Part shown: positions 1-41,815 of the stretch, in pieces | Position numbering within the stretch: the first letter of the stretch is position 1 | How the letters are laid out: the number at the start of each line of letters is the position of its first letter | Virus record (IMG/VR): IMGVR_UViG_3300032373_000001 | Length of the DNA: 64,000 nt | Direction: 5' to 3' (one strand) | Origin: a virus | Taxonomy: Duplodnaviria; Caudoviricetes | Translations under genes and position numbers: made by a program | The notes under the pieces: generated by a model | The model's input: only the letters and a program-made list of their open reading frames with translations | Told to the model about the DNA's origin: nothing | The model's database searches: none

Positions 1-514
1 GGGCGAAGGCGTCGGCGAGGACAGCACCGCTGATCGGAGCGACGACCGGGATGTCGGGGTTCTCACCACCGGCGATCGAGTCGAAGCCTGAGGTCGCGAT
101 CGCGTCGAGAACGGCGAACACACGCTCATCCTCAGCAGCCTGGATCTGAGCCTGGGCCAGGTCCTGGGCGCGCTCGATGAGATCGAAACGGCGCTCCTTG
201 ATCTGGGTCAGGGGGATCTCAGGGTTCGATGCGATCTCGAACAGCGGGAAGATGACACGGCGGGGCTTGGTGATGGCGACGATGTTCTCGCCTTCCTCGC
301 CGACCACGTAGGCCGTGACATCGGGGTCCTTGTCGTAGATCGGCAGAGCGCCGTCCGGCAGCTGCTCGACCAGGAAGGTCTTGCGGCCGACGGCCATGTA
401 GTCGCGGCGCAGGCGCAGCGGCTGGGTCATGGAGGCGGCGAGCTTCGCGCGACCGGCTTGGGTGTTGAGGTGCGCCTTGATGAGGCGGGCCTTGACGTCG
501 TTGGAAACGGGCAT
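1..514 (-). CDS. Major capsid protein, N-terminal part (runs off the left edge; not in the ORF track)
   Basis: Manual translation from ATG at 514 (RBS GAGGAGG upstream): MPVSNDVKARLIKAHLNTQAGRAKLAASMTQPLRLRRDYMAVGRKTFLVEQLPDGALPIYDKDPDVTAYVVGEEG...FEIASNPEIPLTQIKERRFDLIERAQ..., open to position 2. Resembles HK97-fold capsids of large myoviruses; follows protease-scaffold-decoration genes; strong codon bias. Confidence 0.85.
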   Translation of the reverse strand, partial: MPVSNDVKARLIKAHLNTQAGRAKLAASMTQPLRLRRDYMAVGRKTFLVEQLPDGALPIYDKDPDVTAYVVGEEGENIVAITKPRRVIFPLFEIASNPEIPLTQIKERRFDLIERAQDLAQAQIQAAEDERVFAVLDAIATSGFDSIAGGENPDIPVVAPISGAVLADAFA

Positions 515-527
515 TTCTGATCCCTCC

Positions 528-1199
528 TCAGATGCGCTGATCGAAGACGATCTCGGACTGCGTGGAGTCCGAAGGCATCTTCAGAATGCCGATCGTGGTT
601 GCCCCGCCCACCGCGGAGTTGGTAGCTTCCAGGAAGAAAGCAGAGGTCGTGGAGATGTCAGCACCGGCACTGTCGACCCGGGGGGCGAGGTAGCCGTTGT
701 CCGAGGCAGCGAGGGCCATTCCAGCGGTGTAGGTCAGGGCAGCACCCTGAGCGTAGGCACCGGCGGCTGCGAGCGCTGCGGTCTCGAAGAGCTGCGAGGC
801 GTAGGTGCCTTGCGAGGACATGTACGGACCCTTGCCAGAGGCGGGACCGGGGGTGTTCTCGTAGGCGTTGCCCACAGCGGTGTTGATGAAGCAGCCCAGC
901 GGACGGATCAGCGTGGCCTGCAGGGCGGTGATGCCACCAGCAGCGACGGTGTTCGGACCGCCGATGTAGTTGGCTCCGACGTCCGGGCGGGTGAAGGCGA
1001 CCGAGCCACTCAGGACACCAAGCGTCGCAGTGTCGACGTTGTCCGAGATGGTGGAAGCGGTGGTGACGATCGGGGGGTTGGTCTGCGTAAAGGCGTCATC
1101 CGTCAGGATGCCAACCGTGTTCCGCACGCCGACGTGCAGAAGACGCAGGGCCGAGGAGCTCTCGGTCCAACCACCACTCGCCTGTCCAAGCAGAGACAT
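528..1199 (-). CDS. Putative capsid decoration/head-associated structural protein
   Basis: 223 aa, Ala/Gly/Thr-rich, immediately upstream of the capsid gene, RBS AGGAG; assigned from position only. Confidence 0.55.
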   Translation of the reverse strand: MSLLGQASGGWTESSSALRLLHVGVRNTVGILTDDAFTQTNPPIVTTASTISDNVDTATLGVLSGSVAFTRPDVGANYIGGPNTVAAGGITALQATLIRPLGCFINTAVGNAYENTPGPASGKGPYMSSQGTYASQLFETAALAAAGAYAQGAALTYTAGMALAASDNGYLAPRVDSAGADISTTSAFFLEATNSAVGGATTIGILKMPSDSTQSEIVFDQRI

Positions 1200-1297
1200 T
1201 CGATTCTCCTACTCTTTGTTCACAGGTTGGGTGAGACGACTGGTGGACAACCCCCCAGTCTTGACAGCAAAAGAGCCGTCTACAGAAGAGGGAGGCT

Positions 1298-1313
1298 TAT
1301 TGGCACACTATTC
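1298..1313 (-). promoter_or_regulatory. Weak instance of the recurring promoter-like motif (GAATAG-N6-AATA)
   Basis: Partial match to CGGTAG-N6-TATC, upstream of the decoration/capsid genes and just after a terminator. Confidence 0.35.
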
Positions 1314-1352
1314 AAAGAAAAGACCTCCTCTTGTGAGAAAAGAGGAGGTCTT
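1313..1352 (-). terminator. Rho-independent terminator after the scaffold gene
   Basis: Inverted repeat AAGACCTCCTCTT (1320-1332) / AAGAGGAGGTCTT (1340-1352), followed on the minus strand by TTTCTTT. Confidence 0.75.
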
Positions 1353-1386
1353 ATTTATGCGACGGGGCTTGACGCCCCTTGCAAGA

Positions 1387-2580
1387 TCACTGGAAGTGGC
1401 TGGTCACGTCCGGAGCCGACTGCCAGAGCTGGCTGAGGTCCATGTCACCCTCGGCCGAAGCCTCCTTGGTGACAGTGCCCAGCGTGGACGGGCCGGTCGA
1501 AGCCTTCTTGGGCTGCGGCTTGAGGTCGAGCTCGGAGGCTTCCTTGGCCTGCTCGTCGGCGAGACGGGAGACCTCATCGCCCTGGAGCTGGGCCAGGAGC
1601 GAGCGCTCCTCCTCATCGAGTGCCATGATGTTCATGGGGTCCATGTCCATCTCGACCTCCTCTTCCTCGTAGAAGGAAGAGGGCTCGTTCTGGTCCATGC
1701 CGACATCTTCCACGGCCTCGGGCTCCATCATGCCCTCTTCGCGCATCATCTCCATGTACATGGCTTCGTAGTCGTCGCCTCCCATGGGCTCACCGCAGGC
1801 TGCCTGAGAGGCCATGCCCTCTTCGTCGCAGGCCTTCTTCTTGGCCTCCTCGTCGACCTCGACCTCGACCTCCTCCTCATCGCTGTCGTCATCGCTGTCG
1901 TCATCGCTGTCGTCATCGCTGTCGTCGTCATCATCCTCATCGCCCTCATCGTCATCCTCGGCGAGGCGCATGAGGATGCGCTCCAGGCGGGCGACGCGGG
2001 ACTCGGTGTCGTCTTCGGCAGCGAAGCGGGTCAGGACGCGCTCCAGCGTCGCGATGCGGCCTTCCAGGGAAGCCTGCTTCTCTGACTCCTCCACCCCCTC
2101 AGCCTTGTGCTCGACCTCCTCCTGGATGGTCTCAGCGGCCTCAGCCTCAGCCTTCTCTTCCTTCTCGGTGCCCGCGGCCTTGTCCTCGGCCTGCTTGTTG
2201 AGGTTCTCGAGGCTGGTGAAGATGTGGGACTCGGGCAGGTCCATGAACAGGCTGGCTTGCCTCTCGACCTTCATCACGTCGGCGTCGGTGGAGGGCTCGC
2301 CCAACATCGCCGTGGCGAGGCGCAGGCAGAGGTTGGCCTTCTCGATGGCAGCCATCTTGGAAGCCGGGTGGTCGTGGCCCTCATTCGGGACAGCGGGTGC
2401 AGGTCCGTTCGGGTACGGGCCGGGGTGCGGGTCCTCAGCCCAGGAGCTGGGGTCGCCGTTCTCGTACTTGTCAGCCTCGGGGTCGGGCTGAGAGTGAGCG
2501 GGCGATGCCGGTCCTTCGTTGGGCACGGCGGGAGCCGCCGAGCTCTTCTTGTTGTTCCAGGTCAGTCGTTGACGAGCCAT
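1387..2580 (-). CDS. Putative capsid scaffolding protein (highly acidic)
   Basis: About 397 aa, very D/E-rich, helical repeats (RIATLERVL/RVARLERIL), between the protease and capsid genes; many K/R-x-A-S motifs. Confidence 0.7.
   Translation of the reverse strand: MARQRLTWNNKKSSAAPAVPNEGPASPAHSQPDPEADKYENGDPSSWAEDPHPGPYPNGPAPAVPNEGHDHPASKMAAIEKANLCLRLATAMLGEPSTDADVMKVERQASLFMDLPESHIFTSLENLNKQAEDKAAGTEKEEKAEAEAAETIQEEVEHKAEGVEESEKQASLEGRIATLERVLTRFAAEDDTESRVARLERILMRLAEDDDEGDEDDDDDSDDDSDDDSDDDSDEEEVEVEVDEEAKKKACDEEGMASQAACGEPMGGDDYEAMYMEMMREEGMMEPEAVEDVGMDQNEPSSFYEEEEVEMDMDPMNIMALDEEERSLLAQLQGDEVSRLADEQAKEASELDLKPQPKKASTGPSTLGTVTKEASAEGDMDLSQLWQSAPDVTSHFQ
1879..1926. repeat. 12-bp tandem repeat x4 (ATCGCTGTCGTC) encoding DDSD repeats in the scaffold
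   Basis: Four exact copies read directly from the sequence. Confidence 0.9.
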
Positions 2581-2592
2581 CACGAACTCCTC

Positions 2593-4047
2593 TTAGAGGG
2601 TTTGCGGGTTGTTGTTGCGCTCCCACTTGGAGAGCAAGGAGCCGACCCGGACAACAACCCGGAGTTCGGCAGAGGAAAGCTCCCTCCCCGCCGCGCGCAG
2701 GATGGCGCGCTTGTAGTCTTGCGGGGAAGTGTAGCGAACCGGGGAACCGACCTTCAGCGCCACCCGGTAGGGTGCGGGGTCGGTCGGGATGCCGTAGGCT
2801 TGGTTCAGGGTGGCGACCCCTTCCACCAAAGCCACTTGGGAAGAGGCGGTGCGGGTCAGCAGGTCCATGCTGACATGGTACGCCTTGCGAGCAAGTCGGG
2901 CACCAGCCTCTCGCTGAATCGAATCGTTGGGCTGGAATGTGACCTCCGAGTCTGCCTCGGACGCCTCATCTTCCCTCAAGTCCTCATCGATGCGGTCGTG
3001 GACCTTGTCCTTGACCTTCTCGTAGACCTTCTCGGTGAGGTCTTCGAAAGGCTTCTTCGGCTCTTCGCCCTTCGGCGCATCGCCCCCTTCCTCGTCGTCG
3101 TCCTCGAAGTCGAACGCCTTGCAGAACTTGGGGAGGGTGAGGTTGGCAGCCTTGCTCATGGCGGTGTCGGACCAGCCGGTGGGGGCCTGGGCCAGAACAT
3201 CCCGCAGAGCCTTCTTGACCTGAGCGGGAGGGAGGTCACCTGCATCGATCAGGTTGCGCATGACCGCCCCAGGGAAAGCCGGGACCTTGACCCAGCTGGC
3301 CTCGATGAAGTTCACGCCGCCCGGAGCGTCAGGGTTGTCCTTGTAGTCGATGTGGCCGCAGAGCTCTGCAACGACGCGCTTCTGTTGGCGCTCGTCCAAG
3401 AAGCTATTGAGCTTGCTGATCTTGATGTGGTCGCAGAGGTCCGTCTCATCGACCGCGACATGGCCGCACTGAGAGCAGATGGTGAAGTCTGTGGTACAGC
3501 CCATGCTGAGGGTGCCCATGACCCCAGCCCTGATGTCGCGGACCAGGGTCTCGTGCTTCCGGTCGGTGGCGACCAGAATGTCGATGTAGACCGAATCCCC
3601 GATGTCGCGGGCGACCGCATCCAGGATGCGACCCTTACTCTGGGCCTCGATCTGGACGTGCTCTTGGAAGTTGTGGCCCGCGATGAAGGTGGGGTAGCTC
3701 GCCGTCAGGACCGGACGGCTCCAGCAGTCGCCGTTGTTGTTGACGAACTGAGCCGACTTGTCGGTGATGTAGAAGTCGCCCCAACGACGGTCGATGGTCC
3801 GGGACCCGACCCGGACCCGACCCAGCTTGGCGTTGGGGGCCTGCTCAGTATCCACCGAAGCCACGATGGTGCAGTGAGTGAACAGGTACTTGTCGGGGTC
3901 CAGGCTGCCGCCCAAAATCTCCCTCGCCTGATCTGTCAAGTTGCGGTTGCTCGCACCCGAGGTTGCAGCGGTGCGCGTTCGGCTCCACTGGCGACGACTC
4001 ACGTAGGGGTGAACCACCATGGCATTGGCTTTCTTCGAGTGAGCCAT
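2593..4047 (-). CDS. Prohead maturation protease (HK97/assemblin-like) with C-terminal extension
   Basis: Motifs NNNGDCW, FIAGHNFQEH (His), GTLSMGC (Ser), Cys cluster CSQCGH...CDH, then FIEASWV.VPAF; position upstream of scaffold and capsid genes. Confidence 0.75.
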   Translation of the reverse strand: MAHSKKANAMVVHPYVSRRQWSRTRTAATSGASNRNLTDQAREILGGSLDPDKYLFTHCTIVASVDTEQAPNAKLGRVRVGSRTIDRRWGDFYITDKSAQFVNNNGDCWSRPVLTASYPTFIAGHNFQEHVQIEAQSKGRILDAVARDIGDSVYIDILVATDRKHETLVRDIRAGVMGTLSMGCTTDFTICSQCGHVAVDETDLCDHIKISKLNSFLDERQQKRVVAELCGHIDYKDNPDAPGGVNFIEASWVKVPAFPGAVMRNLIDAGDLPPAQVKKALRDVLAQAPTGWSDTAMSKAANLTLPKFCKAFDFEDDDEEGGDAPKGEEPKKPFEDLTEKVYEKVKDKVHDRIDEDLREDEASEADSEVTFQPNDSIQREAGARLARKAYHVSMDLLTRTASSQVALVEGVATLNQAYGIPTDPAPYRVALKVGSPVRYTSPQDYKRAILRAAGRELSSAELRVVVRVGSLLSKWERNNNPQTL

Positions 4048-4604
4048 CAGAGCCCTCCTTCGTCCACGCAGTCCGGGTCGAGCGCCGGGGCGTTGTGGGG
4101 GTGGTTCACGATGTCGTCAGTCTTGACGAGAAACATGCAGTTCGGGCAACCCATGAGGCGAGTGCTCTTGCCGTCCCGCCTCTTGTAGATGGCCTTCTTG
4201 AGGGGGGAATTCGGACCACAACGAGGACAACAGGGGCGACCGTCCGACAACTCGTTCTTCGTCATCCGGTAGCGGCGGTCGCATTCCACCCAGTACATCG
4301 CGCGAACACCTCGACCGGACCCTCCTGCGGGGACACGAACGGTCGGGGTTCCGCCTGGTGTTGAGTTGATTCGGGTGGGGATCACGTTGCCATTCTCATC
4401 GAAGTGCTGAAGGTCCTCCGCAGGAAAGCGGCGGTTGCCCGAGCCAGGGAACTCTACGTCCACCATGCCGATGGCAGGATAAACTGCAGTGACGGTGCCA
4501 GTCATGCTTTGAACGAAGCCGAACGGAGCCGCACGGTCCCCGACCGAGAACTCACGCCCTCGCTCTTGGTAGTCGACGTAATCCGCTGCGGCTTGCCGGG
4601 TCAT
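4047..4604 (-). CDS. Hypothetical protein with C-terminal zinc ribbon
   Basis: CCPRC...CPNC; RBS GAGGAG before ATG 4604; TGATG coupling to the protease gene. Confidence 0.6.
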   Translation of the reverse strand: MTRQAAADYVDYQERGREFSVGDRAAPFGFVQSMTGTVTAVYPAIGMVDVEFPGSGNRRFPAEDLQHFDENGNVIPTRINSTPGGTPTVRVPAGGSGRGVRAMYWVECDRRYRMTKNELSDGRPCCPRCGPNSPLKKAIYKRRDGKSTRLMGCPNCMFLVKTDDIVNHPHNAPALDPDCVDEGGL

Positions 4605-4609
4605 GAAGG

Positions 4610-5008
4610 TCACTCCTCGAAGAGGTTGAGTCCCAGGGCGGCGAACTTGGAGCCGAGGTCTTCGAGGGTGTTGCCCTCAACACGCTCCAACAGCTCCCCG
4701 CTCTCCTCGCCGTCGAAGGTGGCCATGTACGGCTCGTCGGCATCGTGCTCCAGCGGGGGCTGAACCTCAGCGATCTGGTTGGGGTCCCAACCACCGTTGG
4801 AAGCAGAGGCATCCTTGGTCTCGATCGGGAAGTTGCGGGCCGCAACCTTCTCGACGTGATCGCTGAGCAGATCCAGGCGCGTCTGCATGTCGCGTGCAAC
4901 CTTGGTGTCGATCTCCAAGACCTCGCTGGCCTCCTGGAGGAGGTCAGCGACCCGGTCGAAGAGGGCAGTGACATTGAGGGCACCCTTGCGGGTCAGCTTG
5001 TTGGCCAT
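4610..5008 (-). CDS. Hypothetical head-region protein
   Basis: 132 aa, RBS AGGAGG; carries a WDPNQI...DADEPYM motif also found in 39842-41023. Confidence 0.65.
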   Translation of the reverse strand: MANKLTRKGALNVTALFDRVADLLQEASEVLEIDTKVARDMQTRLDLLSDHVEKVAARNFPIETKDASASNGGWDPNQIAEVQPPLEHDADEPYMATFDGEESGELLERVEGNTLEDLGSKFAALGLNLFEE

Positions 5009-5060
5009 CAGGGCCTCCTGCAGATTAAGATGCTACACCAGGACACAAATAAGTGTCCTG

Positions 5061-5076
5061 TATTGACAATCCACCG
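5061..5076 (-). promoter_or_regulatory. Promoter-like motif CGGTGG-N6-AATA with an adjacent hairpin
   Basis: Intergenic; followed directly by the stem CAGGACAC/GTGTCCTG (5039-5060). Confidence 0.5.
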
Positions 5077-5088
5077 GGAGTAAAACGA

Positions 5089-8000
5089 TCAATTCCGGTG
5101 CAAATCGGACGCTTGCTTGCCGGTGGCAGTGATGAGGTTCTTCAGGTACTCCTGAACCCAATCGAGGAAGGCACGCTTAGACCGCAACTCTGTCATCTTG
5201 CGTTTAGGGGCAGCTTTGGCCCGCGCTTTCTTGGCAGCCCTCTTGTGGTCAGCGACCACTGCTTCGCGGCCGACCTCTTTGGTCACCGCCGGGTCCAAGA
5301 ACGCGGTCTCAGCCTGCATCAAGTCGATGAGGTGCTGCCGGATCTCATTGCGGTCCTCGTCGCTGAGGTAGCCTGAGCGGTCGGGGTCGGTGAGGAACTG
5401 AACCAGGGAGGCACCCGGATGGTCTTCCGGCAAGAGATCTTCCAAGTCTTGGTCCGTCAGATCCTCGTAGATGCTGCGCATCATGCGCTGGTCTGCCAGA
5501 CCCGAGCCACCGTACATGGAGAGGCCAGCCAACTTGTCCAGGGACCCAGCTTTATCTGCTGCCTGAACCAAGCGTGCCATAGAGCTGGCAACGCCCGTAG
5601 CCTTGTCCCCGTCTTGGATGGCGCTGGCCATCCCGATCCCACGCTGGATCGCCTCAAGGTGGTCCCGTTGGGCACTGTCCTCGGGAAGACCCTCAATCTT
5701 CTCTTCGACCCTTTCCCAGTGTCGCTGACGGGTATCCGCATCCAGCTTCTTGTAGGAAGAGACCGCGCTCAAGGCACGCTCCGCAGCAGCCTTCTTGCTC
5801 TCCTCGGAAGAAGCCTCACCCTTCGGAGGAAGCGGGTCTTCCAAGTCTACTGCGGGGTTGTCCAGCACGTTTTCGTAGTAGGCCATAAGCGCCAGGTTCT
5901 CCGCCAAGGTGGTGGGGTCCTTCACCGAACCTTTCTGGACCTGATCCGTCATATCCTTCAGGGCTTCCAGCAGCCGAGAACTGTCGGGGATGGCCTCTCG
6001 AACCAGCGAGGAGGACGCAGTACTGAACTGCTCCTTGAACTCCTCATACTGATCCGCCCCGAAAGAGTCCAAGACCTCGCGAGTCTTGTCGCGGGAGTCC
6101 TCGGGAACCCCCCTCAGTGCCCTGGTGGTGTACTTCTTCCGCTCCGTAAAATAGCGGTCCAGGGAGACCTCCGAGCTCTCATCCTCTTTCGGCTTGTCCG
6201 CCGAGGGAGCCTCTTTCTCGGGAGCCGCCTCATTCTGCTGGCGGAGCTTCTCTTGCTGAGACTCAGGCAGGGAACCGAACTCGACCTTGTTCCCGGTCTC
6301 TTCGGAGGTGTACTCCTTGCCCTCTGCCCAGTCAGGAACCTTCGCTGCCATACGAGCTACCCTGGCAGCGCTGGGCATGCGAGGGTAGCTTCGATCAAAA
6401 GGGTCGGGGGTCGGGACCCCCGAGGCCCGCTGTTCGCACTGACGCGACCGGATGCGGGTCTCATGTAGACCCGCATCCTTGTAGTTCTGGGAGCGGTCTT
6501 TCTTGTCCTGCTTCTCGTCGGGATCCTGATCTCCGTCGGTGTCGACCTTGCGGTTCCGGAGGTCCATGCGAGGAGGCTTCTTCTTGGGGGACTGCTGTAC
6601 CAGTTTCTCAGCTTCCCGGTCGTCCTTCTCCCCCTCGCTGAGAGTCGACTGCTTGAACCAGACTGCGGAGAGCTGACCCGACAAGGATGCCTTGACCTTC
6701 TTGCCCTTGTTCCGCTTCTCGTTGACCCACCGCCAGAACTGACCGATGGGCATGGTGGAGATCTCACCCTCCTTGAAGTATCCGGGCTTAGAGTACTGGT
6801 TCTTGTAGGCCCCGATGGCCTCCTCGACCGAGTTGAACCCCAGCATCACCTTGTCTTCATCGTACTTCCCGTCCCAAGGGTTGTGCTGATGAACCACGAC
6901 CACCAGAGAGCTGTCGTGGTTATCGCCCACATACACGTCGAGCTTGTCGCCGTCCGTACCCTCGGTGCCCCGGATCTCCCCGTAGTGGCAGATCATCTTG
7001 ACGGACCAGGGCTCCCCGTCAGGGTCCGTGCCGGAGCGGGTGCTGCCCTTCTTGTTCTCCACGTCGATCTTGACGCCCTGGAAGTCGATGAAGCCTTCGA
7101 AAGGATACTCTTTCCGCTTGGCCTTGGGGGGGAGGACCTTGACCGGGTGGAAGTTATGGGGAGACTCGACCAACTTCTGGTTGGTCGAGGCGAACTTCAC
7201 CGTATAGCCAGCAATCTGACGGGTCAGGTCCCCCACGCGATAGCTGAGGAGCTGAGCCTCTTCGTTGTCCCAGAGGTCCCGCACGTCTTCAGCAAGGTCA
7301 TCGATGCGGCGGAACAAGCGGATAAACCCGAGACCCGGCAGGGCGGGTCGCTTGCCGCTGCGGGGCTTGATGTAGCCCTCTACGACCTCCCGGAACTGTC
7401 GGTGGAGGTCGTAGAGCTTCCGGGATGCCCGGTGTGCCCCTTCTACGGCAGCCTCTGCGGCCAGCGCCTTGGTAACCGTGCTCAGATCTTCAACCTGCTG
7501 ATGGAAGGGCGACCGGATCTTGAGCGGGAACACGTCTGCAAGTTTGAGGGTCGCGAACCTCCAAGCACGCGGTCGGGCCGACCCCTTGCGCACGGACTCC
7601 ACGTGACGCATGAACTTCAGAAACTTAAAGCTCAGCGACTGAAGCTCCCAACTCGGCCAAAGCTCCGACGCCTCGTAGAGTGCCTCATCAGCCTCTTTCA
7701 TCTTCCCCAAGAAGTAGTCCCACTTGGGTTCCACGAGCGGGTTCTTGCGGGACTGCTTCATAGAGGGCTCGATGCCATCGATGAACGCGGAAGACATCTT
7801 TGCGTAGGCCCGGCCCAGCAGGGCTTCAGCGGCCTGAGCTCCAGGGTCATCCCTGAACTTGGTGCGCGACCCATGGCTGAATGCAGCGATGCGCGCCATG
7901 AGGTTGTAGGATTCCTTGTAGAGCGGGAAATACCGCCACGCCGGGTCAGCGTATCGGGGGCGCTCCTGGCCCGCATCCATGAGCTGGAGGTTGTCGTAGA

Positions 8001-14897: not shown

Positions 14898-14905
14898 AGC
14901 GCCCC

Positions 14906-18038: not shown

Positions 18039-18063
18039 AATCTTCTCCTCAAAGCAGGAGGAA

Positions 18064-18079: not shown

Positions 18080-18098
18080 CTGGGAGACCCCGTCGGGA

Positions 18099-22147: not shown

Positions 22148-22151
22148 CTAC

Positions 22152-31221: not shown

Positions 31222-31640
31222 CGAAATTCCGGGAGCTCCGCAAGGTCCAGCCAGAAGTCCGATACTACCTGCACCAAGCTGTCCAAGTCTTGGCGGCCGA
31301 CCGGCTTCTTGAGGTAGCTGTTGGCACCTTGCTCGTACGCACGGACGATGTCCGACGGGGAGGGGGATGTCGTCAGGACCAAGACTGGGATCTTCCTCAA
31401 CAACGCATCCGTCTTTCGGAAGGCCAAGAACTCATGCCCATCCATGACAGGCATGATCAGGTCCAGCAAGATCAGCTGGGGGCGGAGACCCAGCTCAACC
31501 ATAGAGATCGCGTCTCGCCCGTGCACCGCCACCTTGACTTCCACATTCTTGGGGCCATGGCGCTCCAAAGCCTTCCGCATGAGAAAAGCGTCTGCGGGTC
31601 GATCGTCCACGACCAGCAGGACTGGGATTTGGCGAGGCAT
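31218..31640 (-). CDS. Single-domain response regulator (Rcp1/CheY-like receiver)
   Basis: VDD, LILLDLIMPVMDG (phospho-Asp), VLTTS (Thr), YLKKP (Lys) all intact; probable ATG 31640. Confidence 0.92.
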   Translation of the reverse strand: MPRQIPVLLVVDDRPADAFLMRKALERHGPKNVEVKVAVHGRDAISMVELGLRPQLILLDLIMPVMDGHEFLAFRKTDALLRKIPVLVLTTSPSPSDIVRAYEQGANSYLKKPVGRQDLDSLVQVVSDFWLDLAELPEFR

Positions 31641-31641
31641 C

Positions 31642-32202
31642 TCAGCCCCCCGCCATCTGCAAGAAGCCATAGGCTGCTGCGCCACCTACGCCGACCAACC
31701 CCGCCGCCCAGAGGAGGTACTTCCCGAAGCCTTCCCACAGCACGGAAGCTGCCTCGCGGAGTTGCCTGTTCGCCTCATCTTCCCTTCGCCGGGCTGCCTC
31801 CACTTCTCGGTCAGAGAGCTGATGCGCCCGTTCGGCGGAACGCTCCTCCCGGTCCCCAGAGTGCTGGAGCACTCTCTCGATCAGGGACTTCTGATCGGCC
31901 ATCTGGTCCTGACGCTCTTTGCGTTCTTGCGCCAAGAGCTCGTCCATCTTGCCCACAAAGCCGCTGATGGTAGAGAGCAAGGTCTCAGTGGTGACGGTCT
32001 GTTGGGTAACCGAGCGGTCCAAGTTGTCCAACTTGGCCGAGAAGTCCCTCCGCAGAGAAGAGACCTCCGAGCTCTGTTGGGTCACCAAGTGCTTCTGGGA
32101 CTCCAAGAGCGCAGTGATCGAATCGGCCAAGTGAGACATAGAGGTGTCCAGCCGCACCAAAATGTCGCGCTCAGTCATCTGCGCTGTGCGATGCTCTTCC
32201 AA
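31642..32202 (-). CDS. Coiled-coil protein with a C-terminal transmembrane helix (holin/XhlA-like candidate)
   Basis: Heptad-rich N-terminal region; hydrophobic YLLWAAGLVGVGGAAAYGFL at the C-terminus. The holin call is inference. Confidence 0.45.
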   Translation of the reverse strand: MEEHRTAQMTERDILVRLDTSMSHLADSITALLESQKHLVTQQSSEVSSLRRDFSAKLDNLDRSVTQQTVTTETLLSTISGFVGKMDELLAQERKERQDQMADQKSLIERVLQHSGDREERSAERAHQLSDREVEAARRREDEANRQLREAASVLWEGFGKYLLWAAGLVGVGGAAAYGFLQMAGG

Positions 32203-32227: not shown

Positions 32228-32243
32228 GATAGGTCAGCGACCG
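32228..32243 (-). promoter_or_regulatory. Promoter-like motif CGGTCG-N6-TATC
   Basis: 26 nt upstream of start 32202; heads the TM protein-regulator-kinase-peptidase operon. Confidence 0.55.
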
Positions 32244-32806
32244 GCGTAGAGCTCGACCCTCAAGAGGAACTGCTTGAAAGCCTCGTCCGGGACCCACCCA
32301 GCGCCAGCGAACTCTTCCTGGGGCAGGGGGTCCGGGATATTCCCCCAGAGCTCTGGGATCGGCCTGCCTCGGAGGTACTCGCGCTCCGTGCTGAGCAGGA
32401 GGTTGTCCACCCAGATCAAATCCTCGGTCATCCCCGGAGGCAACCCGCGCCACTCCCAGACCAGGTCCTGAACCTTGGCTTCCAGAGTGTAGTAGGCATC
32501 CTTGATGCCCGGGAAGCGCTTCAGCGGTCGGGGGATGTCCACCAAGACATACTCAGACCCATCGTGGAACAGGAACTTGTGCGCCATCTCTTCATCGCCG
32601 TAGCGCTGGAGGATGTAGTCGTGCCCTCGCACGGAGTGTTCCGCGACGGAGTAGAAGCGGTGCAGGTGACCGGCGAAGCGGCACTGGTTGCTCAGCGCGC
32701 GAGCCATGCCGAAGAGGTCCAGCATCTCGATCCTCGGATCGAGAAAGTCGAAGGCAGTTGCATCGATGGTTTCGATGGTGCAGTGACTCGGTTCGATGTA
32801 TGGCAA
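32234..32806 (-). CDS. HD-domain phosphohydrolase (YfbR/YfdR-like nucleotidase)
   Basis: ARALSNQCRFAGH...YSVAEHSV...LFHDGSEY..VDIPRPLK. Confidence 0.85.
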   Translation of the reverse strand: MPYIEPSHCTIETIDATAFDFLDPRIEMLDLFGMARALSNQCRFAGHLHRFYSVAEHSVRGHDYILQRYGDEEMAHKFLFHDGSEYVLVDIPRPLKRFPGIKDAYYTLEAKVQDLVWEWRGLPPGMTEDLIWVDNLLLSTEREYLRGRPIPELWGNIPDPLPQEEFAGAGWVPDEAFKQFLLRVELYAGR

Positions 32807-35800: not shown

Positions 35801-38059
35801 GTCCGAAGCAGTCGCTGCCAGGGTGATGCTTCCGAGGGCACCGCCCTGGGCCGCTGCGAACTCCCCGAGAGATGCCCGGTTGATCGCTCGAACATAGGAG
35901 GCAGCAGTCGCCGTCGCAGAAGAGTCTGCCTTGGCCTGGATCAAGACCCCATCGATCTCCAGGTCGATGTCCCGGTTGGTTGAGTCGATGTCGTAGGTGG
36001 TGCCGCCCGAGTCCGCATCGTAGGAGACCACGTCCCCTACCAACTGACCGCTGAAGCCTGTCCCCGTAGCAGCCGGGTTGCTGAGCTTGACGAAGCCGCC
36101 CGCCAACGCAGAGCCGTCCACCTCGATGTCGAAGTTCTCCGAGGCCCCGGAGACCATGTAGTAAGGTCCGGAGCTGGGAACCGTGTAGGCCCCCAGCGTG
36201 GCACCTTGACTGGCGAAGGTGACGGTGACATCTTCCTCGACACCACCCGTGAACACTGAGGCGCTGAACGGGCTTTCGAAGCGGGCGTCGGGGTCCGACT
36301 CGCTACCGGAGGGGAACTGAAGGGTGATGGTCGCCAGCGCCGCAGACTTGCTGCCGAAGCGAGGGGTGTAGAGGGTGTTGCCATCCTCATCCTGCACCGA
36401 ATAGGTTCCGACGCCGCTGCCACCCGCAGACTCCGACGTGAAGGTGTAGTCCGCGTCCTGGAGGGTGCTGTAGTAGAAGGTGGCGTAGACGCTCGCACCG
36501 ACCGGGACCGGCTCACTCAGGGTGATCTGGTTGGTGGCAGCTTCAACACGGGTGACAGCAACACGACCGCGATTGACCGCATCGCTGAGGCTGTAGCCCC
36601 AGTAGGCGAAGACGAGGTCCGGTCGGTTGGTCGGCAGGTCCACGCGACCGTTGCTGACCTCGCTGAAAGTAGTGGTGTCCAGCGGAGAGTTGCGACCGTT
36701 CCCGGTGGTGGCTGTCAGCGGGAGGGTGAACGTGGTGCGGCTCTCGACCGGAGGCGAGACCGTTTGGTTCACCACTGCCGCGCACTCAGCCAAGTACTGG
36801 CGAGCATCGACCAGCGTCGAGCTGATCTGGTTGGAGCCGAAGGCCGTCCCGCCGACCGTCAGCTCGCCCTGCTCGACCAGCGTTGCCGCACCCCAGAGGA
36901 TGCGGTCCTCCTTGAGGACGTAGTCGGTGCCGTTGATGTAGTCGGTGCGATCTGGAGTCAGACCCACACGGGTGATCTCAGTGACTCCGATGTTCTCCAG
37001 GTAGTCGAAGGTGTCCTGCCAGGAGTTGAAGAAGTACTGGATGGTAACCGTTGCGCCCACTTCCGGAGCGAAGGGGAGAGTGACGGCACGAGTCTGACCA
37101 TCGACCGCAGTCGGGATCACCTGGGTGCCGTTAACCTTCACGGTCACGTCCGCAGTGTCAGTCGTGGTCACACCACCGTTGCTGCCATCGACAATCGGGC
37201 CTTGGAAGGTGTAGAAGACCTTGTTGCGGCTGGTGCCGTTGCCCTGCGTCAGGCCAAGCGTGGTGTTCGCGGTGCCCGCACCCACATCGACGTCGCGGTC
37301 TGCCGTGAGAAGCAGGACCGTTTGGCCGAAGGAGTTCTCCGCCGAGGAAGCAACGAGGCTGGTCCCAGTCGCAGCGGCGTTGATGAACGCCGCCACCTGT
37401 GCAGCAGTCCACCCGCCCGAGGGGCTCTCGGAGATGGCGACCGAGACTGCGTCCGTCGAATCGACAGTGAGCAGGAGGGTGTCGTTGACGTCCGTGGTGA
37501 TGGTGTAGTTCTGACCGACCTCCCCATAGATCGTGGGGGCATCGGGGGCGACCTGATCGCTCACCGTGTCGGTGATCAGGGTGTCGGTGCGGTTGAAGAA
37601 GTAGGTGACCCGGACCTCATCGGTCGCCTCGGGGGTGACGCTGATGCGAAGAACACCGCTGGCACCATCGATGGACAGGACGGCAACAGGCGACCCGTTG
37701 ACGGTGACATTGACACTGCCGGCGGTGGTCGCAGTAACGCCTGCGCCAGTGCCAGTGACGATCGGATAGTTGCGGACCTGGAGGCGGTCCAAGGTCCCAT
37801 CAAAGTTGCCGAGCGTGGCCTGCCCTGCGTTCGAGATGGAGACGACTGCACGTCCGGTCTCGTCTTCCTGCACGACCCGCTGATCGACGTTCGAGGAAGA
37901 GCCCCGAACCAGCTCCAACGCATCCCGCGTGAGGCTCTCGACAGCTTCGCCCATGAACAGAGGAATCCTCAGCGCAGCGGCGATGCCCTGGAGCGGAGAC
38001 TCCTGATTCGTCTCGGTGTAGACGCCTGGAGGGGCGTAAATTTGTCCGGGAAAAGCCAT
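32870..38059 (-). CDS. Contractile tail sheath protein (very large, many inserted domains)
   Basis: N-terminal YAPPGVYTET; C-terminal RQGLTTD...TVIAIADEVQR...AYAPVLPLLYVILRF typical of sheath proteins; 1729 aa. Confidence 0.88.
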   Translation of the reverse strand: MAFPGQIYAPPGVYTETNQESPLQGIAAALRIPLFMGEAVESLTRDALELVRGSSSNVDQRVVQEDETGRAVVSISNAGQATLGNFDGTLDRLQVRNYPIVTGTGAGVTATTAGSVNVTVNGSPVAVLSIDGASGVLRISVTPEATDEVRVTYFFNRTDTLITDTVSDQVAPDAPTIYGEVGQNYTITTDVNDTLLLTVDSTDAVSVAISESPSGGWTAAQVAAFINAAATGTSLVASSAENSFGQTVLLLTADRDVDVGAGTANTTLGLTQGNGTSRNKVFYTFQGPIVDGSNGGVTTTDTADVTVKVNGTQVIPTAVDGQTRAVTLPFAPEVGATVTIQYFFNSWQDTFDYLENIGVTEITRVGLTPDRTDYINGTDYVLKEDRILWGAATLVEQGELTVGGTAFGSNQISSTLVDARQYLAECAAVVNQTVSPPVESRTTFTLPLTATTGNGRNSPLDTTTFSEVSNGRVDLPTNRPDLVFAYWGYSLSDAVNRGRVAVTRVEAATNQITLSEPVPVGASVYATFYYSTLQDADYTFTSESAGGSGVGTYSVQDEDGNTLYTPRFGSKSAALATITLQFPSGSESDPDARFESPFSASVFTGGVEEDVTVTFASQGATLGAYTVPSSGPYYMVSGASENFDIEVDGSALAGGFVKLSNPAATGTGFSGQLVGDVVSYDADSGGTTYDIDSTNRDIDLEIDGVLIQAKADSSATATAASYVRAINRASLGEFAAAQGGALGSITLAATASDIDDYYIGWTVRPTAGLANGDVRTITDYDGTTKVATVGVNFSGAPVVTDTYHIHDPDAVPVIKSSTRFLAPVTITAGEYDALVLNYTGTTVASTPVSLTAGNVIAAGTYASVSALATAVQTAMDAAITAAGIDIAVAVGSDSSGRLTFALTVDPTDTGGGFLEFVAGASTAVDFAVLAGLPTAGAQGAQAKLVNSDVARLYTLGDTPTLNDRLVLRNRLVPGNGGSLDGQDILDLTQLEVLGGTGATQAGLTPNELGQAGTQATIKSPTVRGLVGLSGGQVPTATYGDARDGQPLVTFYAAGGTTAQNNVLQLTIEGTPITVEFADATGTAIASGGSADVPLGPVGVANTVLAQVQAALTAASSTATLTQEGAGFRLRGASSASSATIVLGTGSANSVLGLSGGDVFQRTDVSVEVLVSALMAHSGATLSASLLSWGSPTATYFAAEALAKTVRDSANAAYLYIQSQGTAGAGTSSSVAIAVAATASVTLPGTGLGVTGGEGGTGEDALEGFYVTSSDIVTGSGTANTSVLNSGTGQDGQVGQTYRDAVTGLTFTLLEREGGTSYPAAATFTFTVRAAATADANLPSRVVPGAEVIVSNTLGVTDGDTGIVETYDRGGNEPDIGDLYYATYDYAKQVYATQLFTRQATIVAAYGSIGTQNPLSLASYLALNNGAVILALRQVQRDTDTDGDGVNDSASTAAYLTALGDVEGPLPGGAFLNYITALKTDSQALYEQMALHCDVQSSIRFRAERTALAGFSAGTQPQEAGNSAEAIGRSRFRFLYPDIYTLTLDNGDGTSDSYLVDGGYMAAAWAGARANPSIDVATPWTRRQVFAFDEIARVLDPVQQNQVAVRGVTVMTQERNRIFCRQGLTTDMSGPLTKLPTVIAIADEVQRQSRSTLDGFTGNKFLAGITSQIASQLQKTLDSLQKAQIIQGYAGVEANPSPDDPTAVEAQAAYAPVLPLLYVILRFSLRSSLT

Positions 38060-38631: not shown

Positions 38632-38883
38632 CTACCCGTTGTCCTGAACCCACTCGGCGGCTTCTTCGTAGTCCGTGGACTCGAACGTGGCTCCGGCCAT
38701 CAGCTCGCCGGTCCAGGTGCCCCAACCCATAGAGTAGAGGTAGCCCATGGGACGACCACGCCGGTCCTTGAGAACGTACTGATCACCGTCAACATCCCAG
38801 CGGGAATTGAGGCGCTTCAGGCGCTCGTACACGCTGGCGGTCCGGAGGTTCTCCGCACGAAGGATCTTGGAGAGCTTGTTCAT
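38632..38883 (-). CDS. Small hypothetical protein with MNKLSKILRAENLRTAS leader
   Basis: 83 aa; leader shared with 20007-20588. Confidence 0.6.
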   Translation of the reverse strand: MNKLSKILRAENLRTASVYERLKRLNSRWDVDGDQYVLKDRRGRPMGYLYSMGWGTWTGELMAGATFESTDYEEAAEWVQDNG

Positions 38884-39842
38884 GACATTTCCCGGTGAAG
38901 GTTGCGGGTGTACTCCTCAAGGGCTGCACGATACGCTCGACGCCAGCCCTTGTAGAGCGAGTATTCATCGAAGGTGTACCGACCCCGGCTCAGGTCCGAA
39001 ACGGAACCGTCTTGGCCGATACTGAGGAAGCCCAACTCTCCCGGCCAGTAGATGCGGGTGCCGACGCCAGGCTTGTGCCAGACCGTCAACCGATCGGGCC
39101 CCCCGTGCTTCTTGATCAGCCGAGAGAGATCTTCCGCCTTCTGCTTGGCCCCGGCCCGAGCCTCCTGCTCTTGCTGACGGGTTCGCTCCCTGCGCTCTCG
39201 GACCAGCTGCCTGCGAAGGTCATTCAGGCGCTGCTGCACTCGGGGCAGCAGCTTCTTGTGGAAGCCCAGCTCCGACGCTCCCAACCGCTCGATCTGAGCG
39301 ACCAGGGCCTCAATCTCCTCCCCCAAAGACTTTCCCGAAGCCTGGACTGTCTTGGGGGCAGCCAGTTGCTGGAGGAGATACTGATTCTCCTCGTGGGCGT
39401 TGGCGGTCGCCATGATCCAATCATCCAGGCCCAGCGTCATCGCCCCGGCTTCTTTGATGGCGTCGTAGGATTCCTGCAAGAGGTCCTGGAGGTCCTGCTC
39501 GCTCTGAAGTCCCCGGAGCACATGGTCCGCTTCTTGGGACCAACGCTCCATGCTGTACTGAATAAGCTGGCCCTGTAGGCTGAGGCCCACGCCCTCTGCT
39601 CCGAAGTAGCCGACGACCTTCTCTGCGATCTGATCGATCTGCACCTCGACGCTCTCGTAGAGCCTCTGGAACAAGAGGTGGTCGCCATAGAACGAAGGGC
39701 CGCGGACCTGCCAGTGACTGGTCTGGTAGGAGAGGTACATGGCACGGAGCATCCCCAGTATGCGACCGAGGCGTGCCTCGGTCACCGACCTCTGCTCAGG
39801 GGTCGCGCTGAGGTAGGCGCGCTTCTCTTGCTCGAAAGACAT
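38880..39842 (-). CDS. Dps/ferritin-like domain protein with extra C-terminal domains
   Basis: SHWQVRGPSFYGDHLLFQRLY...DQIAEK matches the Dps ferroxidase helices; probable ATG 39842 (TGATG overlap). Confidence 0.75.
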   Translation of the reverse strand: MSFEQEKRAYLSATPEQRSVTEARLGRILGMLRAMYLSYQTSHWQVRGPSFYGDHLLFQRLYESVEVQIDQIAEKVVGYFGAEGVGLSLQGQLIQYSMERWSQEADHVLRGLQSEQDLQDLLQESYDAIKEAGAMTLGLDDWIMATANAHEENQYLLQQLAAPKTVQASGKSLGEEIEALVAQIERLGASELGFHKKLLPRVQQRLNDLRRQLVRERRERTRQQEQEARAGAKQKAEDLSRLIKKHGGPDRLTVWHKPGVGTRIYWPGELGFLSIGQDGSVSDLSRGRYTFDEYSLYKGWRRAYRAALEEYTRNLHREMS

Positions 39843-41023
39843 CAGTCCTCCCAAACCAACTCGCCACCCGACAAAACCTCACCGCCTTTGAGTTCGCGCG
39901 GGAGGCCCACTTCCACAACCGCTGCGAACTTCTGGCGGGCCTGAGCCATGGCCGCAAAACGGTCGGTAGCTCGGACCAGCAGCCAACGGCTGGCCCTCTT
40001 GCCCTCTTCCTCCACCTTGACCTCGACCTCGTAGTTGGAGGTCTCGAGCTCTTGGAGCTCCGAGTTCTCTTCCTGGGTGAACTCGCTTTCCATCCAGGGC
40101 TCGTCAGCGTCTGATGCGTGGGGGCCTGGGACCTCGCTGCCGAGGTCGTTGGGGTCGAAGCCCTCCGCAGCCCCGACCTTCTCCTCGCGGAGGTTTGCCT
40201 TCTTGTCCAGGAAGTCGGGCTTCTTCTCGCCCTTCTCGCCGTCCTTGTCCTTGTCGTTCCCCTTGGGGTTGGGGTTGTCCTCGGAGGTGAACTGATGCTC
40301 CTTCAGGGCATCGGGCACCTTGCCGGCAACCTTCGGGGCGTCCGGATACAAGTCAAAGTAGTGCTTGCTGAACGCGCAGCGGCTGGTCTTCGAGTGTTCC
40401 TTGAGGAATCCCGTGATCCGTTCGTGTCGGTCCGTCTTCTTGGCGCTCAGGGCGAAGACCTGCTCCCCCATGTAGGCGCTGAGATCCGCGACCGAAGCCA
40501 TGCAGAGGCGGGCGGTGTCGGACGGAAAGCCGTACATGCCTCCCGCCAGCTTCTCCTTAGAGGCTTGACGGTGCTTGATATCCTCGGGGAGCTCCTGCAT
40601 GGCAGCGAGGAGGACCTTGGCCGCGAGACCCTTAGAACGCTTGGCGTGAGCCTTCATGAAGGGCAGGGATCGCGCATCCTTCTTGCAGGCATCCTTCGCG
40701 AGCTTCAGGGAGCGCTTCTGGGCACGCTTGACCAGCCGCTCGACGTCCGACTGGGTCTGCTTGGTGTAGCCGTAGAGGCCAGAGGCTGCTGCCTTGGAGG
40801 CGGGCTCAGCTTCCACCGGAGGACCCTCCTTGCGGTGCATCCCCTCTTCGTCGTCCCCGGCCTTCTTGAACTTGTCCTTGTATTCCTGGTTGTGCTGCTC
40901 CCAGGAATCTTGGACGGGCTGAGGCTGCTCGGCGAGCCAAGCCTCAAACTGCTTGCGCCCTTCAGGGCCGGACTCAAACCGCGCGAGGATCTGCTGGCGC
41001 TCGCTGGGGAGGAGAATGCTCAT
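39842..41023 (-). CDS. Hypothetical modular protein with internal repeats
   Basis: 393 aa; two A[SG]G[LM]YG[YF] repeats; DADEPWM motif; many K/R-x-A motifs. Confidence 0.65.
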   Translation of the reverse strand: MSILLPSERQQILARFESGPEGRKQFEAWLAEQPQPVQDSWEQHNQEYKDKFKKAGDDEEGMHRKEGPPVEAEPASKAAASGLYGYTKQTQSDVERLVKRAQKRSLKLAKDACKKDARSLPFMKAHAKRSKGLAAKVLLAAMQELPEDIKHRQASKEKLAGGMYGFPSDTARLCMASVADLSAYMGEQVFALSAKKTDRHERITGFLKEHSKTSRCAFSKHYFDLYPDAPKVAGKVPDALKEHQFTSEDNPNPKGNDKDKDGEKGEKKPDFLDKKANLREEKVGAAEGFDPNDLGSEVPGPHASDADEPWMESEFTQEENSELQELETSNYEVEVKVEEEGKRASRWLLVRATDRFAAMAQARQKFAAVVEVGLPRELKGGEVLSGGELVWED

Positions 41024-41056
41024 CTCAGGGACTCCTTTTATCAGAGCACCCCAAAG

Positions 41057-41072
41057 GATAGCCAGGATACTG
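41057..41072 (-). promoter_or_regulatory. Weaker promoter-like motif CAGTAT-N6-TATC
   Basis: Intergenic, 34 nt upstream of ATG 41023. Confidence 0.4.
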
Positions 41073-41075
41073 AGG

Positions 41076-41504
41076 TCAGATCAGGACGTCGTAGCCCACA
41101 TCCCCCGTGATGGTTGCCCCGGCTTCGAGCGTGAATCCGCTGATGGTCTTGTTAGTGACCCGGAACGGGGCGAAGACTCCGGGACTCAGGGCCACACGGT
41201 ACGCGGTCGAGGCCAGAGGGGAGGAGAACGTGACCACCTTAGACGCCTCTGCCGCAAAGCTCAGGGTGCCGTTGATTGCTGTGGTAAGTGCCAAGAGCGT
41301 CTCCACTTGACCCATAGCGGTCGCGATGTCGTCGGCGACTGATTGGGGGATCTGGGTGTAGGGGCTGACCACGAACCCGTAGGGATTCTGGATGTCTCGG
41401 ACGGAGATCACGCCAGCCTGATTGCTCACGATGGTGAACCGATAGAGCTCGCTGGAGGGGCCAGAGTTGTAGGTGAACTCGCTCTGATACAGAGTAGGCA
41501 TCAC
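41076..41504 (-). CDS. Hypothetical beta-rich structural protein
   Basis: 142 aa; C-terminal VTFSSPLASTAYRVAL...VTNKTISGFTL resembles the end of 20597-22147. Confidence 0.5.
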   Translation of the reverse strand: MMPTLYQSEFTYNSGPSSELYRFTIVSNQAGVISVRDIQNPYGFVVSPYTQIPQSVADDIATAMGQVETLLALTTAINGTLSFAAEASKVVTFSSPLASTAYRVALSPGVFAPFRVTNKTISGFTLEAGATITGDVGYDVLI

Positions 41505-41815
41505 CAGACTCCTGTGGTCTCGTAGCCCTTAGAGGTGAGCCATCGATCCAGCTGCACGAGACCCTCACGGTCCGAGGACCAAAGAGTCAAGCTGTCCCCG
41601 GCGAGGCGTATGCCGAGATCCGGCACCGGAGGCAAAGACGCGATGCGGTTCTTGCCGTCGCGGAAGGCTTTCAAGAACTGCGGGAGGTTCTTGACCCCAT
41701 GCCCGAAGTCATAAACGGCCACCCTCCACTCCGGTGAAGCTCTCGAAGCCACCCACTCACGGGCAATCCGGTAGGTCATCGCGACCCGCTGCTCCGACAA
41801 TTTCAATTTGCTCAT
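41501..41815 (-). CDS. Hypothetical protein
   Basis: 104 aa, RBS AGGAG; leader RVAMTYRIAREWVASRAS. Confidence 0.55.
   Translation of the reverse strand: MSKLKLSEQRVAMTYRIAREWVASRASPEWRVAVYDFGHGVKNLPQFLKAFRDGKNRIASLPPVPDLGIRLAGDSLTLWSSDREGLVQLDRWLTSKGYETTGVW

Follow-up and report, generated by a model that had tools for sequence, protein, structure and literature searches.

The 64,000-nucleotide stretch analyzed here (hereafter the window), taken from the IMG/VR virus record IMGVR_UViG_3300032373_000001 (Caudoviricetes), is the virion module of a huge soil phage. All of its real genes are located on the minus strand and tightly packed; the GC content is 62%, and the window contains no tRNA genes. 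The genes of interest encode the major capsid protein, an acidic scaffold-like protein, a prohead serine protease, two giant polyvalent proteins, the portal and several small head proteins, many of which carry a short motif, [KR]-x-A-[SA]. We propose that this motif is most likely the recognition site of the prohead protease family, which would trim the structural proteins and cut the giants within the prohead. The window belongs to a contig of ~411 kb, and its protease has more than 1,100 metagenomic homologs. By protease similarity, the closest named relatives are the uncultured 485-kb phage LR745208 and the Tunturiibacter phage Tunturi_5, an Acidobacteria myovirus of 309 kb (PMC11924767) that is the nearest cultured relative. 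The gene order protease, scaffold-like gene, 223-aa gene and capsid gene is kept in most of the relatives examined; in the close relative L009, a reverse-strand ORF breaks into the scaffold position. A GIY-YIG/NUMOD3 homing-endonuclease-like gene (L009:9166-9999) is inserted directly upstream of the protease gene in the same genome.

Judging by its predicted structure, ORF 2593-4047 is a prohead protease whose core, residues ~50-295, has the herpesvirus-assemblin / T4 gp21 fold, as the first-pass annotation of the window had supposed. The protein matches phrog_18299 ('head maturation protease', E 2.8e-8) and phrog_2774 (E 1e-16), and it is 40% identical to Tunturi_5 gp331, which is annotated as a head maturation protease; sequence comparison with the PDB returned only noise. 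Fifty homologs went into the AlphaFold model, in which the core (residues ~35-270, pLDDT ~90) and a helical C-terminal domain (residues 404-479) are both confident, with disordered or acidic linkers between them. When the model was compared with 48,161 chains using VIA-align, the top four matches were the varicella-zoster virus (VZV) protease (Z 10.8), T4 gp21 (5JBL; Z 8.7), and the human cytomegalovirus (HCMV; Z 8.5) and KSHV (Kaposi's sarcoma-associated herpesvirus; Z 7.1) proteases, while Foldseek placed T4 gp21 first (prob 0.95), followed by herpesvirus proteases. The candidate nucleophile is S181 in TLSMGC (3496-3513), a serine that is invariant in the 50 homologs, as are H58, H130, C191, C194, C205, C230 and H232; H207 is conserved in at least 90% of them. 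The order of these residues is compatible with a His...Ser...(His/acid) catalytic set, which is predicted from sequence order. The four invariant cysteines (C191, C194, C205 and C230), with H207 and H232 close by, belong to a Cys-rich insertion at residues ~191-232 that is possibly a zinc site; to our knowledge, no insertion of this kind exists in T4 gp21 or the herpesvirus assemblins.

The protease itself carries the motif, as RTAA25 (3964-3975) and RTAS399 (2842-2853). Among the 50 homologs, sites recur at residues ~27/28 (46 homologs), ~300/301 (31 homologs) and ~401 (43 homologs), that is, within the disordered N-terminal tail, within the linker that follows the core, and where this linker region gives way to the C-terminal domain. 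They stand out as conserved islands amid variable or disordered segments, a pattern as expected of candidate self-processing sites. Another conserved island of the linker, 'QPNDS', lies at residue ~372. The best PHROG match of the protease, phrog_2774, is a 1,263-position profile.

Motif sites were counted in a curated minus-strand gene set, and expectations were derived from shuffles of each protein. The genes within 1-41815 contain 75 sites versus 28.0 expected (z 9.5), and [KR].AS alone occurs 42 times in 1-41.8 kb versus 11.5 expected (z 9.2). When shuffling is restricted to blocks of 10 or 20 residues, so that local composition is preserved, z remains at 7.7-9.2. The genes past 41.8 kb contain 13 sites versus 11.8 expected (z 0.4); thus, the enrichment anticipated in the first-pass annotation is present in 1-41.8 kb, with none beyond. 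Control patterns of the same composition are flat (SA.[KR], z 1.2; [DE].AS, z -1.3; [KR]..A[SA], z 1.1; [KR].G[SA], z 0.1), and by analytic expectations [KR].A[^SA] is not enriched. These controls exclude a composition artefact. Nearly all sites listed in the first-pass annotation are present in the genes to which they were ascribed; the exceptions are 'KVKAS' (~943), a near-motif with Val at P3, the variant 'KQAG', and 'VQAS' in the gene at 38880, which does not fit.

An unbiased scan, in which ~48,000 gapped tripeptides were ranked by over-representation, placed R.AS first in 1-41.8 kb (28 occurrences versus 6.5 expected, P 4e-10) and K.AS first in five relatives of lower GC content (P 6e-24); no comparable top pattern was obtained for the downstream genes (>41.8 kb). 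The choice between Lys and Arg tracks GC content, the pattern itself being kept. In a position-specific logo, Lys/Arg at P3, Ala at P1 and Ser more than Ala at P1' each emerge when the remaining positions are fixed. Given the rest of the motif, Ala at P1 is enriched 3.2x over background, and at P1' Ser is enriched 2.6x and Ala 1.5x. At P3 before AS, Lys reaches 2.9x and Arg 2.2x, versus only 1.0-1.3x for Ile, Val and Leu, and P2 is poor in Pro, Gly and Asn. A hydrophobic P5 adds little (2.7x with or without it in the window). Taken by its sequence preferences, this profile looks like the subsite profile of a protease.

The x-x-E substrate rules of the T4/phiKZ type were also tried and were rejected, there being no matching enrichment in the head region. 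The [ASG].E pattern has no excess there (z -1.3), [LIV].E reaches z 3.0 versus z 1.5 in the downstream non-head genes, and neither pattern ranks at the top of the unbiased scan.

By position in the window, the excess is confined to 2-18716, the portal gene and 38632-41023 (~58 sites versus ~19 expected; Table 1). The tail-like genes, the terminase and the sheath are at background, the last of these serving as a negative control inside 1-41.8 kb, and the replication genes have no excess, in agreement with the earlier remark that the motif is much rarer in the replication genes and most of the sheath. The extent of 1-41815 first given to the system is, however, too broad, as the tail, terminase, kinase and sheath genes within it are not part of the system. 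Outside the head region, a 99-aa ORF (60064-60363) has KRAS2 and KSAS24 near its N-terminus (2 sites versus 0.09 expected); its product may be packaged from a gene at a distance from the head module.

Table 1. Genes and features of the window, with motif sites observed versus expected.
Feature	Position	Strand	Sites	Remarks
Major capsid gene, 5' part	2-514	-	1 (leader)	runs off the left end of the window
Conserved 223-aa protein	528-1199	-	0 vs 0.3	between scaffold and capsid genes
Acidic scaffold-like protein	1387-2583	-	7 vs 0.78	
Prohead serine protease	2593-4047	-	2	
188-aa protein	4047-4613	-		Cys-rich (CxxC-type) motifs; one site, RQAA6, near N-terminus
Small motif-rich protein	4610-5008	-	3 vs 0.21	
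Polyvalent giant 1, 1476 aa	5089-9519	-	9 vs 3.7	
Polyvalent giant 2, 1797 aa	9504-14897	-	9 vs 4.1	
Three motif-rich proteins	14906-18716	-	10 vs 3.2 (14906-17323); 2 vs 0.78 and 3 vs 0.41 (17316-18716, the latter in 18099-18716)	the last two (17316-18716) are small, 240 and 205 aa
Tail-like genes	18751-22490	-	2 vs 2.0	
Portal	22423-24333	-	4 vs 0.93	phrog_16240 portal, E 3e-24
Large terminase	24664-26580	-		
C39-like peptidase	28244-29284	-		Peptidase_C39_2-like, E 1e-6
PAS histidine kinase and small upstream partner gene	29233-31685	-		partner matches related PHROG families
dNMP phosphatase-like gene	32234-32806	-		
Tail sheath	32870-38059	-	3 vs 2.3	both ends homologous to Tunturi_5 gp326 sheath (34% and 29% identity)
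Small head-associated genes	38632-41023	-	5 vs 1.3 (39842-41023)	83-aa, ferritin-like and 393-aa proteins
Sigma-70 region 4 domain protein	41857-42459	-		
Replication-type genes	beyond ~43 kb	-		

In metagenomic relatives, ~290-aa proteins that adjoin the protease are 58-83% identical to the capsid protein fragment, and Tunturi_5 gp334 ('major head protein') shows 47% identity to it; the capsid homologs match PF25209 (Phage_capsid_4) weakly. The predicted leader cut site of the fragment is KLAA (residues 24-27, at 434-445), and [KR]-[LI]-A-[AS]-S is found at residues ~24-28 in all seven aligned capsid homologs, with weak conservation upstream of the site and very strong conservation downstream. 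The neighboring 223-aa protein is 60% identical to the ORF at the same position in relative L002 and has no match in Pfam or PHROG.

The scaffold-like protein, which carries (DDDS)n and Glu-rich tracts, contains KMAA76, RQAS108, KQAS169, RFAA186, KEAS347, KKAS359 and KEAS373. Its family is barely alignable, yet sites recur at residues ~15 and ~76, and two further sites (PKKAS and KEAS) stand ahead of a conserved C-terminal tail, LS.LWESAPDVS..F. In the window these two are KKAS359 (1498-1509) and KEAS373 (1456-1467), directly before the tail, and a cut there would remove the last 23-37 residues. The portal sites (RTAS52, RFAS581 and KTAS586 among them) lie near both ends; in relatives they are located at 2-9% and 86-97% of the protein length, and RFAS is kept in four of six.

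Nothing was found in Pfam for the scaffold or the small head proteins. The 188-aa protein is conserved upstream of the protease in L002 (41% identity). The motif-rich protein at 14906-17323 has 805 aa, and its L002 homolog carries 10 sites versus 1.2 expected; the window protein is poorly modelled in the Atlas (pLDDT 0.47), where no fold matched it. We regard it as a putative internal head protein or one of the ejection type, with no detectable homology to the Tunturi_5 gp328 'DNA ejection protein', although both are motif-rich and encoded upstream of the protease. In the two proteins of 17316-18716, both conserved in L002, the sites (including KKAS, RVAS and RIAS) are clustered in the C-terminal halves. 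At the other end of the head genes, the 83-aa product of the gene at 38632 has RTAS14, and the five sites of the 393-aa protein at 39842-41023 include RQAS152 and KRAS342. The gene between them (38880-39854) encodes a ferritin/Dps-like domain protein (PF00210, E 3e-5; PHROG 'DNA binding protein') with zero motif sites.

Some otherwise unrelated small motif-rich proteins have in common a segment of ~40 residues, '[FW]DPN[DEQ]...D.DEP[YW]M...'. It is found at residues 73-113 of 4610-5008 ('WDPNQ...DADEPYM'), residues 288-330 of 39842-41023 ('FDPND...DADEPWM') and residues ~83-120 of L010:8249-9436, and might serve in capsid targeting or scaffold docking. The pattern 'FDPN...DEP.YM' was rejected as a general targeting tag: it is absent from the giants, and its 'PN[DQ]' core is over-represented in non-head genes as well.

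Both giants are textbook polyvalent proteins, and their genes lie between those of the protease and the portal, co-oriented with them. Giant 1 consists of a TopoIB module (residues ~12-274; Topoisom_I, E 1.6e-24), helical regions, an InPase module (~806-932; PF18823, E 2.4e-40) and a C-terminal region. In giant 2, the limits of modules were taken from 31 homologs of differing architecture (186/199-328, 329-790, 805-1329, GNAT at 1494-1578 and a 2H phosphoesterase at ~1595-1767), the matching Pfam families being GNAT and 2_5_RNA_ligase2. No embedded peptidase or metallopeptidase domain was detected in the giants using Pfam and PHROGs. Their homologs (109 of giant 1 and 35 of giant 2) recombine these modules with PAP2, PolyA_pol, SOD, carbonic anhydrase, RNA ligase, HAD, NUDIX, ChaC, PF18905, PF18760 and PF18796, and Pfam families of the PF187xx-189xx range co-occur with the polyvalent-protein InPase family. 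Some InPase-containing homologs bear the source annotation 'DNA-binding ferritin-like protein'. The motif is in excess in 108 polyvalent homologs (604 sites versus 371 expected, z 12.9) and in a further 31 (212 versus 110, z 9.2), with flat controls in both sets.

The sites of giant 1 include KEAS269, RFAS320, RIAA543, KFAS775, RMAA1056, KKAAA1242 and KQAS1468. The best-supported junctions are KEAS269 (8704-8715) and KFAS775 (7186-7197): homolog alignments stop no more than 10 residues from site 269 in 70 cases and begin equally close to site 775 in 26. In an AlphaFold model of the first 1,100 residues, sites 269, 320, 775 and 1056 are at domain edges or in disordered stretches. The junction sites of giant 2 are RAAS182 (14343-14354), KCAA792 (12513-12524), RRAS1585 (10134-10145), RTAS1593 (10110-10121) and RLAS1780 (9549-9560); RTAS1345 is also present. 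Altogether, module edges support sites 269, 775, 1426 and 1468 of giant 1 and 182, 792, 1585, 1593 and 1780 of giant 2, whereas 1056 and 1242/3 of giant 1 and 1052 and 1215/6 of giant 2 resemble background.

The earlier suggestion that sites fall at termini and module junctions, and not at random, agrees with several measures. Only 2 of 36 sites are inside Pfam envelopes, which cover 22% of residues (P 0.008). In 73 TopoIB proteins anchored on the module, its N edge collects 74 sites and its C edge 26, compared with ~10 in the interior (~250 residues each, or ~18,000 residues over the 73 proteins), and the InPase module is bracketed likewise. The N edge of TopoIB is marked by a conserved RVAA directly ahead of KYKNKKEVPKADG, and the variable linker upstream of it often has tandem extra copies, such as 'KQAS..RVAA' or 'RAAS.RVAA'. 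In all-against-all alignments, the endpoint density of homologous blocks is greatest no farther than 3 residues from the P1 Ala, where it reaches 10-20x background; with TopoIB and InPase removed, the peak is 3.1x versus 1.1-1.4x for composition-matched controls.

The same motif pattern is found in eight metagenomic loci (seven distinct) of 39-62% GC. In a broad survey of Tunturi_5 (~190 kb, 247 ORFs), the whole excess resides in ~10 ORFs, and after the top 12 ORFs are removed the rest have 85 sites versus 81 expected. The excess ORFs include gp348 (unannotated), gp328, gp332, gp345 ('virion structural protein') and the portal, as well as the 'DarB-like antirestriction' protein gp350 (9 sites versus 2.3 expected) and gp205 ('ADP-ribosyltransferase exoenzyme toxin'), which is encoded 130 kb from the head genes. 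Within the virion locus, gp328 has 11 sites versus 2.7 expected and gp332, at the scaffold position, 7 versus 1.8. Sites are also found in the protease and the capsid leader, and almost none in the sheath, fibers and other tail proteins.

A more distant occurrence is in the Gordonia phage Stormageddon (NC_054726), whose protease core is ~30% identical. Six to seven sites each are present in gp8, gp9, the portal, gp12 and the 1,089-aa protease, KLAS46 occurs in the capsid protein, and the unbiased scan ranks RTA and R.AS highest. The Stormageddon capsid maturation protease (11839-15108), with seven sites, has its protease domain fused to a long extension.

A PAS-PAS histidine kinase (662 aa) is encoded within the virion/packaging operon, which is unusual for a block of structural genes, and the C39-like ORF, located between the kinase and the terminase region, is the second peptidase of the operon. 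The sheath has 1,729 aa in the window versus 1,204 aa in Tunturi_5, and its unaligned middle (residues ~620-1277) is ~500 residues longer than the Tunturi_5 counterpart.

The substrate code that would follow from these observations is Lys or Arg at P3, a P2 residue other than Pro, Gly or Asn, Ala at P1, and Ser or, less often, Ala at P1'. By analogy with the herpesvirus sites, the scissile bond is probably Ala|Ser/Ala. Using this code, the protease would remove a leader of ~26 residues from the capsid protein, and it would process its own chain in the N-terminal tail, past the catalytic core and ahead of the C-terminal helical domain. It would also chop the acidic scaffold and sever its conserved C-terminal tail, which probably binds the capsid protein, and trim both ends of the portal. 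Finally, it would split the giants (TopoIB-InPase; GNAT + 2H) at the linkers between their shuffled modules. The head would then contain separate enzymes, poised for entry into the host along with the DNA. We infer the packaging of the giants and the injection of their fragments from the position of the genes, the literature on polyvalent proteins and the kinds of proteins marked in Tunturi_5.

Several points weigh against the proposed cleavage system, the case for which is a computational one. At E <= 0.01 the protease matches no Pfam family, the clan SH families S21 (herpesvirus), S77 (T4 gp21) and S78 (HK97 gp4) included, and thus no peptidase family; the structural Z scores are moderate (8.7-10.8); and AlphaFold did not put the protease's own sites into its active site. 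Placing the cut at A|S is an analogy, because P3 is basic here and hydrophobic in the herpesvirus sites, and the actual cut could fall one residue later. The polyvalent proteins are enriched just 1.6-fold, which implies that about half of their individual sites are background. RIAA543 of giant 1 is inside a confident helical bundle in the AlphaFold model (one of five sites), KKAAA1242 and RMAA1056 are not conserved in the alignments that span them, and one KDAS is located inside a 2H domain in L009. At the TopoIB N edge, RVAA persists also where the module is the N-terminal one, so that a partly structural role is conceivable, and the window protein reads RVLA there.

Two other explanations take the motif as real and assign it a different role. 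It might be a processing site for another peptidase, which could be the C39-like product of 28244-29284, a peptidase embedded in the giants, or a host protease. A Peptidase_C39_2-like ORF is indeed present in the same operon, and embedded zincin-like metallopeptidases were proposed for polyvalent proteins by Iyer et al. 2017 (PMC5512222). However, neither giant has a detected metallopeptidase domain, and the motif co-occurs with this prohead protease family from Acidobacteria to Gordonia phages. C39 peptidases cut after Gly-Gly, which counts against that candidate. Three positions of the prohead protease itself keep the motif across homologs, as do the capsid leader, scaffold and portal, and the motif's Ala at P1 and Ser at P1' match one other assemblin-fold group of known specificity (PMC4498786). 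Since the motif labels both the prohead protease and its canonical substrates, and accompanies this family, we regard a different peptidase as improbable.

Alternatively, the motif could be an uncut short linear signal, for example a tag for capsid targeting or scaffold docking or, as R-x-x-S, a site phosphorylated by a kinase of the phage or host. The [KR]-x-x-S pattern resembles the sites of basophilic kinases, and a PAS histidine kinase is encoded nearby, though it is not a Ser/Thr kinase. Capsid-targeting tags are, in addition, known in T4 and P1 (PMC9024508). Still, Ala replaces Ser at conserved positions (KLAA versus KIAS in the capsid leader; RVAA at the TopoIB edge), the Ala before Ser is the most specific position, and the many, often tandem sites at exact module borders and before detachable tails fit cutting better than docking. 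Given these substitutions and the tandem, border-hugging placement, an uncut signal has about the same small chance as a different peptidase. That the motif arises from composition or secondary structure (Ala/Lys/Ser-rich helices and linkers of scaffold-like and multidomain proteins), without specific recognition, is hardly tenable: the motif-rich proteins are indeed rich in Ala, Lys and Glu or of low complexity, and AA, AS and some neighboring patterns are mildly in excess (for [SA]A.[KR], z is 2.6 in the window and 6.3 in the polyvalent set), yet block shuffles give z 8-9 and same-composition permutations are flat, the motif tops the unbiased scan in two independent data sets of different GC, the Lys/Arg switch follows GC with the pattern kept, and the sites are positionally conserved in variable segments.

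If recognition by the prohead protease is true, the motif provides a sequence rule for predicting capsid-packed proteins in hundreds of huge soil and water phages, and this rule extends to proteins whose genes are remote from the head genes, among them the ADP-ribosyltransferase toxin and the DarB-like protein of Tunturi_5. It would also offer a testable mechanism for the release of polyvalent proteins as separate enzymes, for which Iyer et al. 2017 offered only embedded peptidases, and it suggests why the shuffling units have sharp borders, in that modules would travel with flanking cut sites. More tentatively, and with slightly less than an even chance in our view, a single protease code, K/R-x-A|S/A, may operate across a large, mostly uncultured phage lineage with Acidobacteria and Actinobacteria hosts; polyvalent proteins would then be true polyproteins cut module by module in the capsid, the injected arsenal could be read from the genome, and the Ala-P1/Ser-P1' preference would be inherited from the assemblin fold, not convergent. 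The cultured phages Tunturi_5 and Stormageddon make the proposed cleavage directly testable.

Prohead proteases with multiple targets are already known; the system described here appears to combine Ala|Ser, as in herpesviruses, with a basic P3. The herpesvirus assemblins (pUL26/pUL80a; MEROPS S21) are the best structural match and likewise have Ala at P1 and Ser/Thr at P1'. Their sites include YLQA-T and VQA-S, and a cut at the M-site frees the scaffold from the capsid protein (PMC4498786); the site 23-37 residues from the scaffold C-terminus would do the same here. Release of the protease from its C-terminal extension is a further likeness, predicted in our case. Unlike in the herpesviruses, P3 is Lys/Arg and not hydrophobic, the protease and the scaffold are encoded by separate genes and not nested in-frame, and a Cys-rich insertion and enzyme-cargo substrates are present.

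Among phages, T4 gp21, phiKZ gp175 and SPN3US gp245 are also assemblin-fold serine proteases encoded beside the scaffold and capsid genes. Like the protease proposed here, they process themselves and also cleave capsid protein, scaffold, portal and numerous packaged ejection proteins, all at a short motif from which substrates can be foretold; the substrates of T4 gp21 are gp23, gp22, IPI-III and Alt (PMC10052503). These three enzymes cut after Glu (L/I-x-E, S/A/G-x-E and A-x-E) (PMC10052503), in contrast to the Ala at P1, Ser/Ala at P1' and basic P3 of the motif described here. In the open-access literature, every characterised phage prohead protease that we found cuts after Glu, and no report of a K/R-x-A|S rule was found for any phage. 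Nearly all identified cleavages by SPN3US gp245 remove N-terminal propeptides (PMC10052503), whereas the sites in the window would dissect multi-enzyme proteins module by module.

The Dar system of phage P1 (DarB, DdrB and the Pro protease) is similar in that large anti-defence enzymes are packed in the head, and the DarB-like gp350 of Tunturi_5 is motif-rich. Cleavage of the P1 capsid protein occurs at E120|S121, and the loading of DarB depends on an N-terminal signal and helper proteins (PMC9024508); the same paper does not mention DarB being cut into modules. Lastly, the polyvalent proteins described by Iyer, Burroughs, Anand, de Souza and Aravind in 2017 share with the giants the stringing together of unrelated enzyme domains, the location in virion modules and the extreme domain shuffling. 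Those authors proposed that embedded zincin-like metallopeptidases release the domains and reported assemblin-like peptidases as rare C-terminal fusions (PMC5512222). The giants described here differ in that they contain no embedded peptidase, and their modules are bracketed instead by a motif shared with the predicted substrates of a separate prohead protease.

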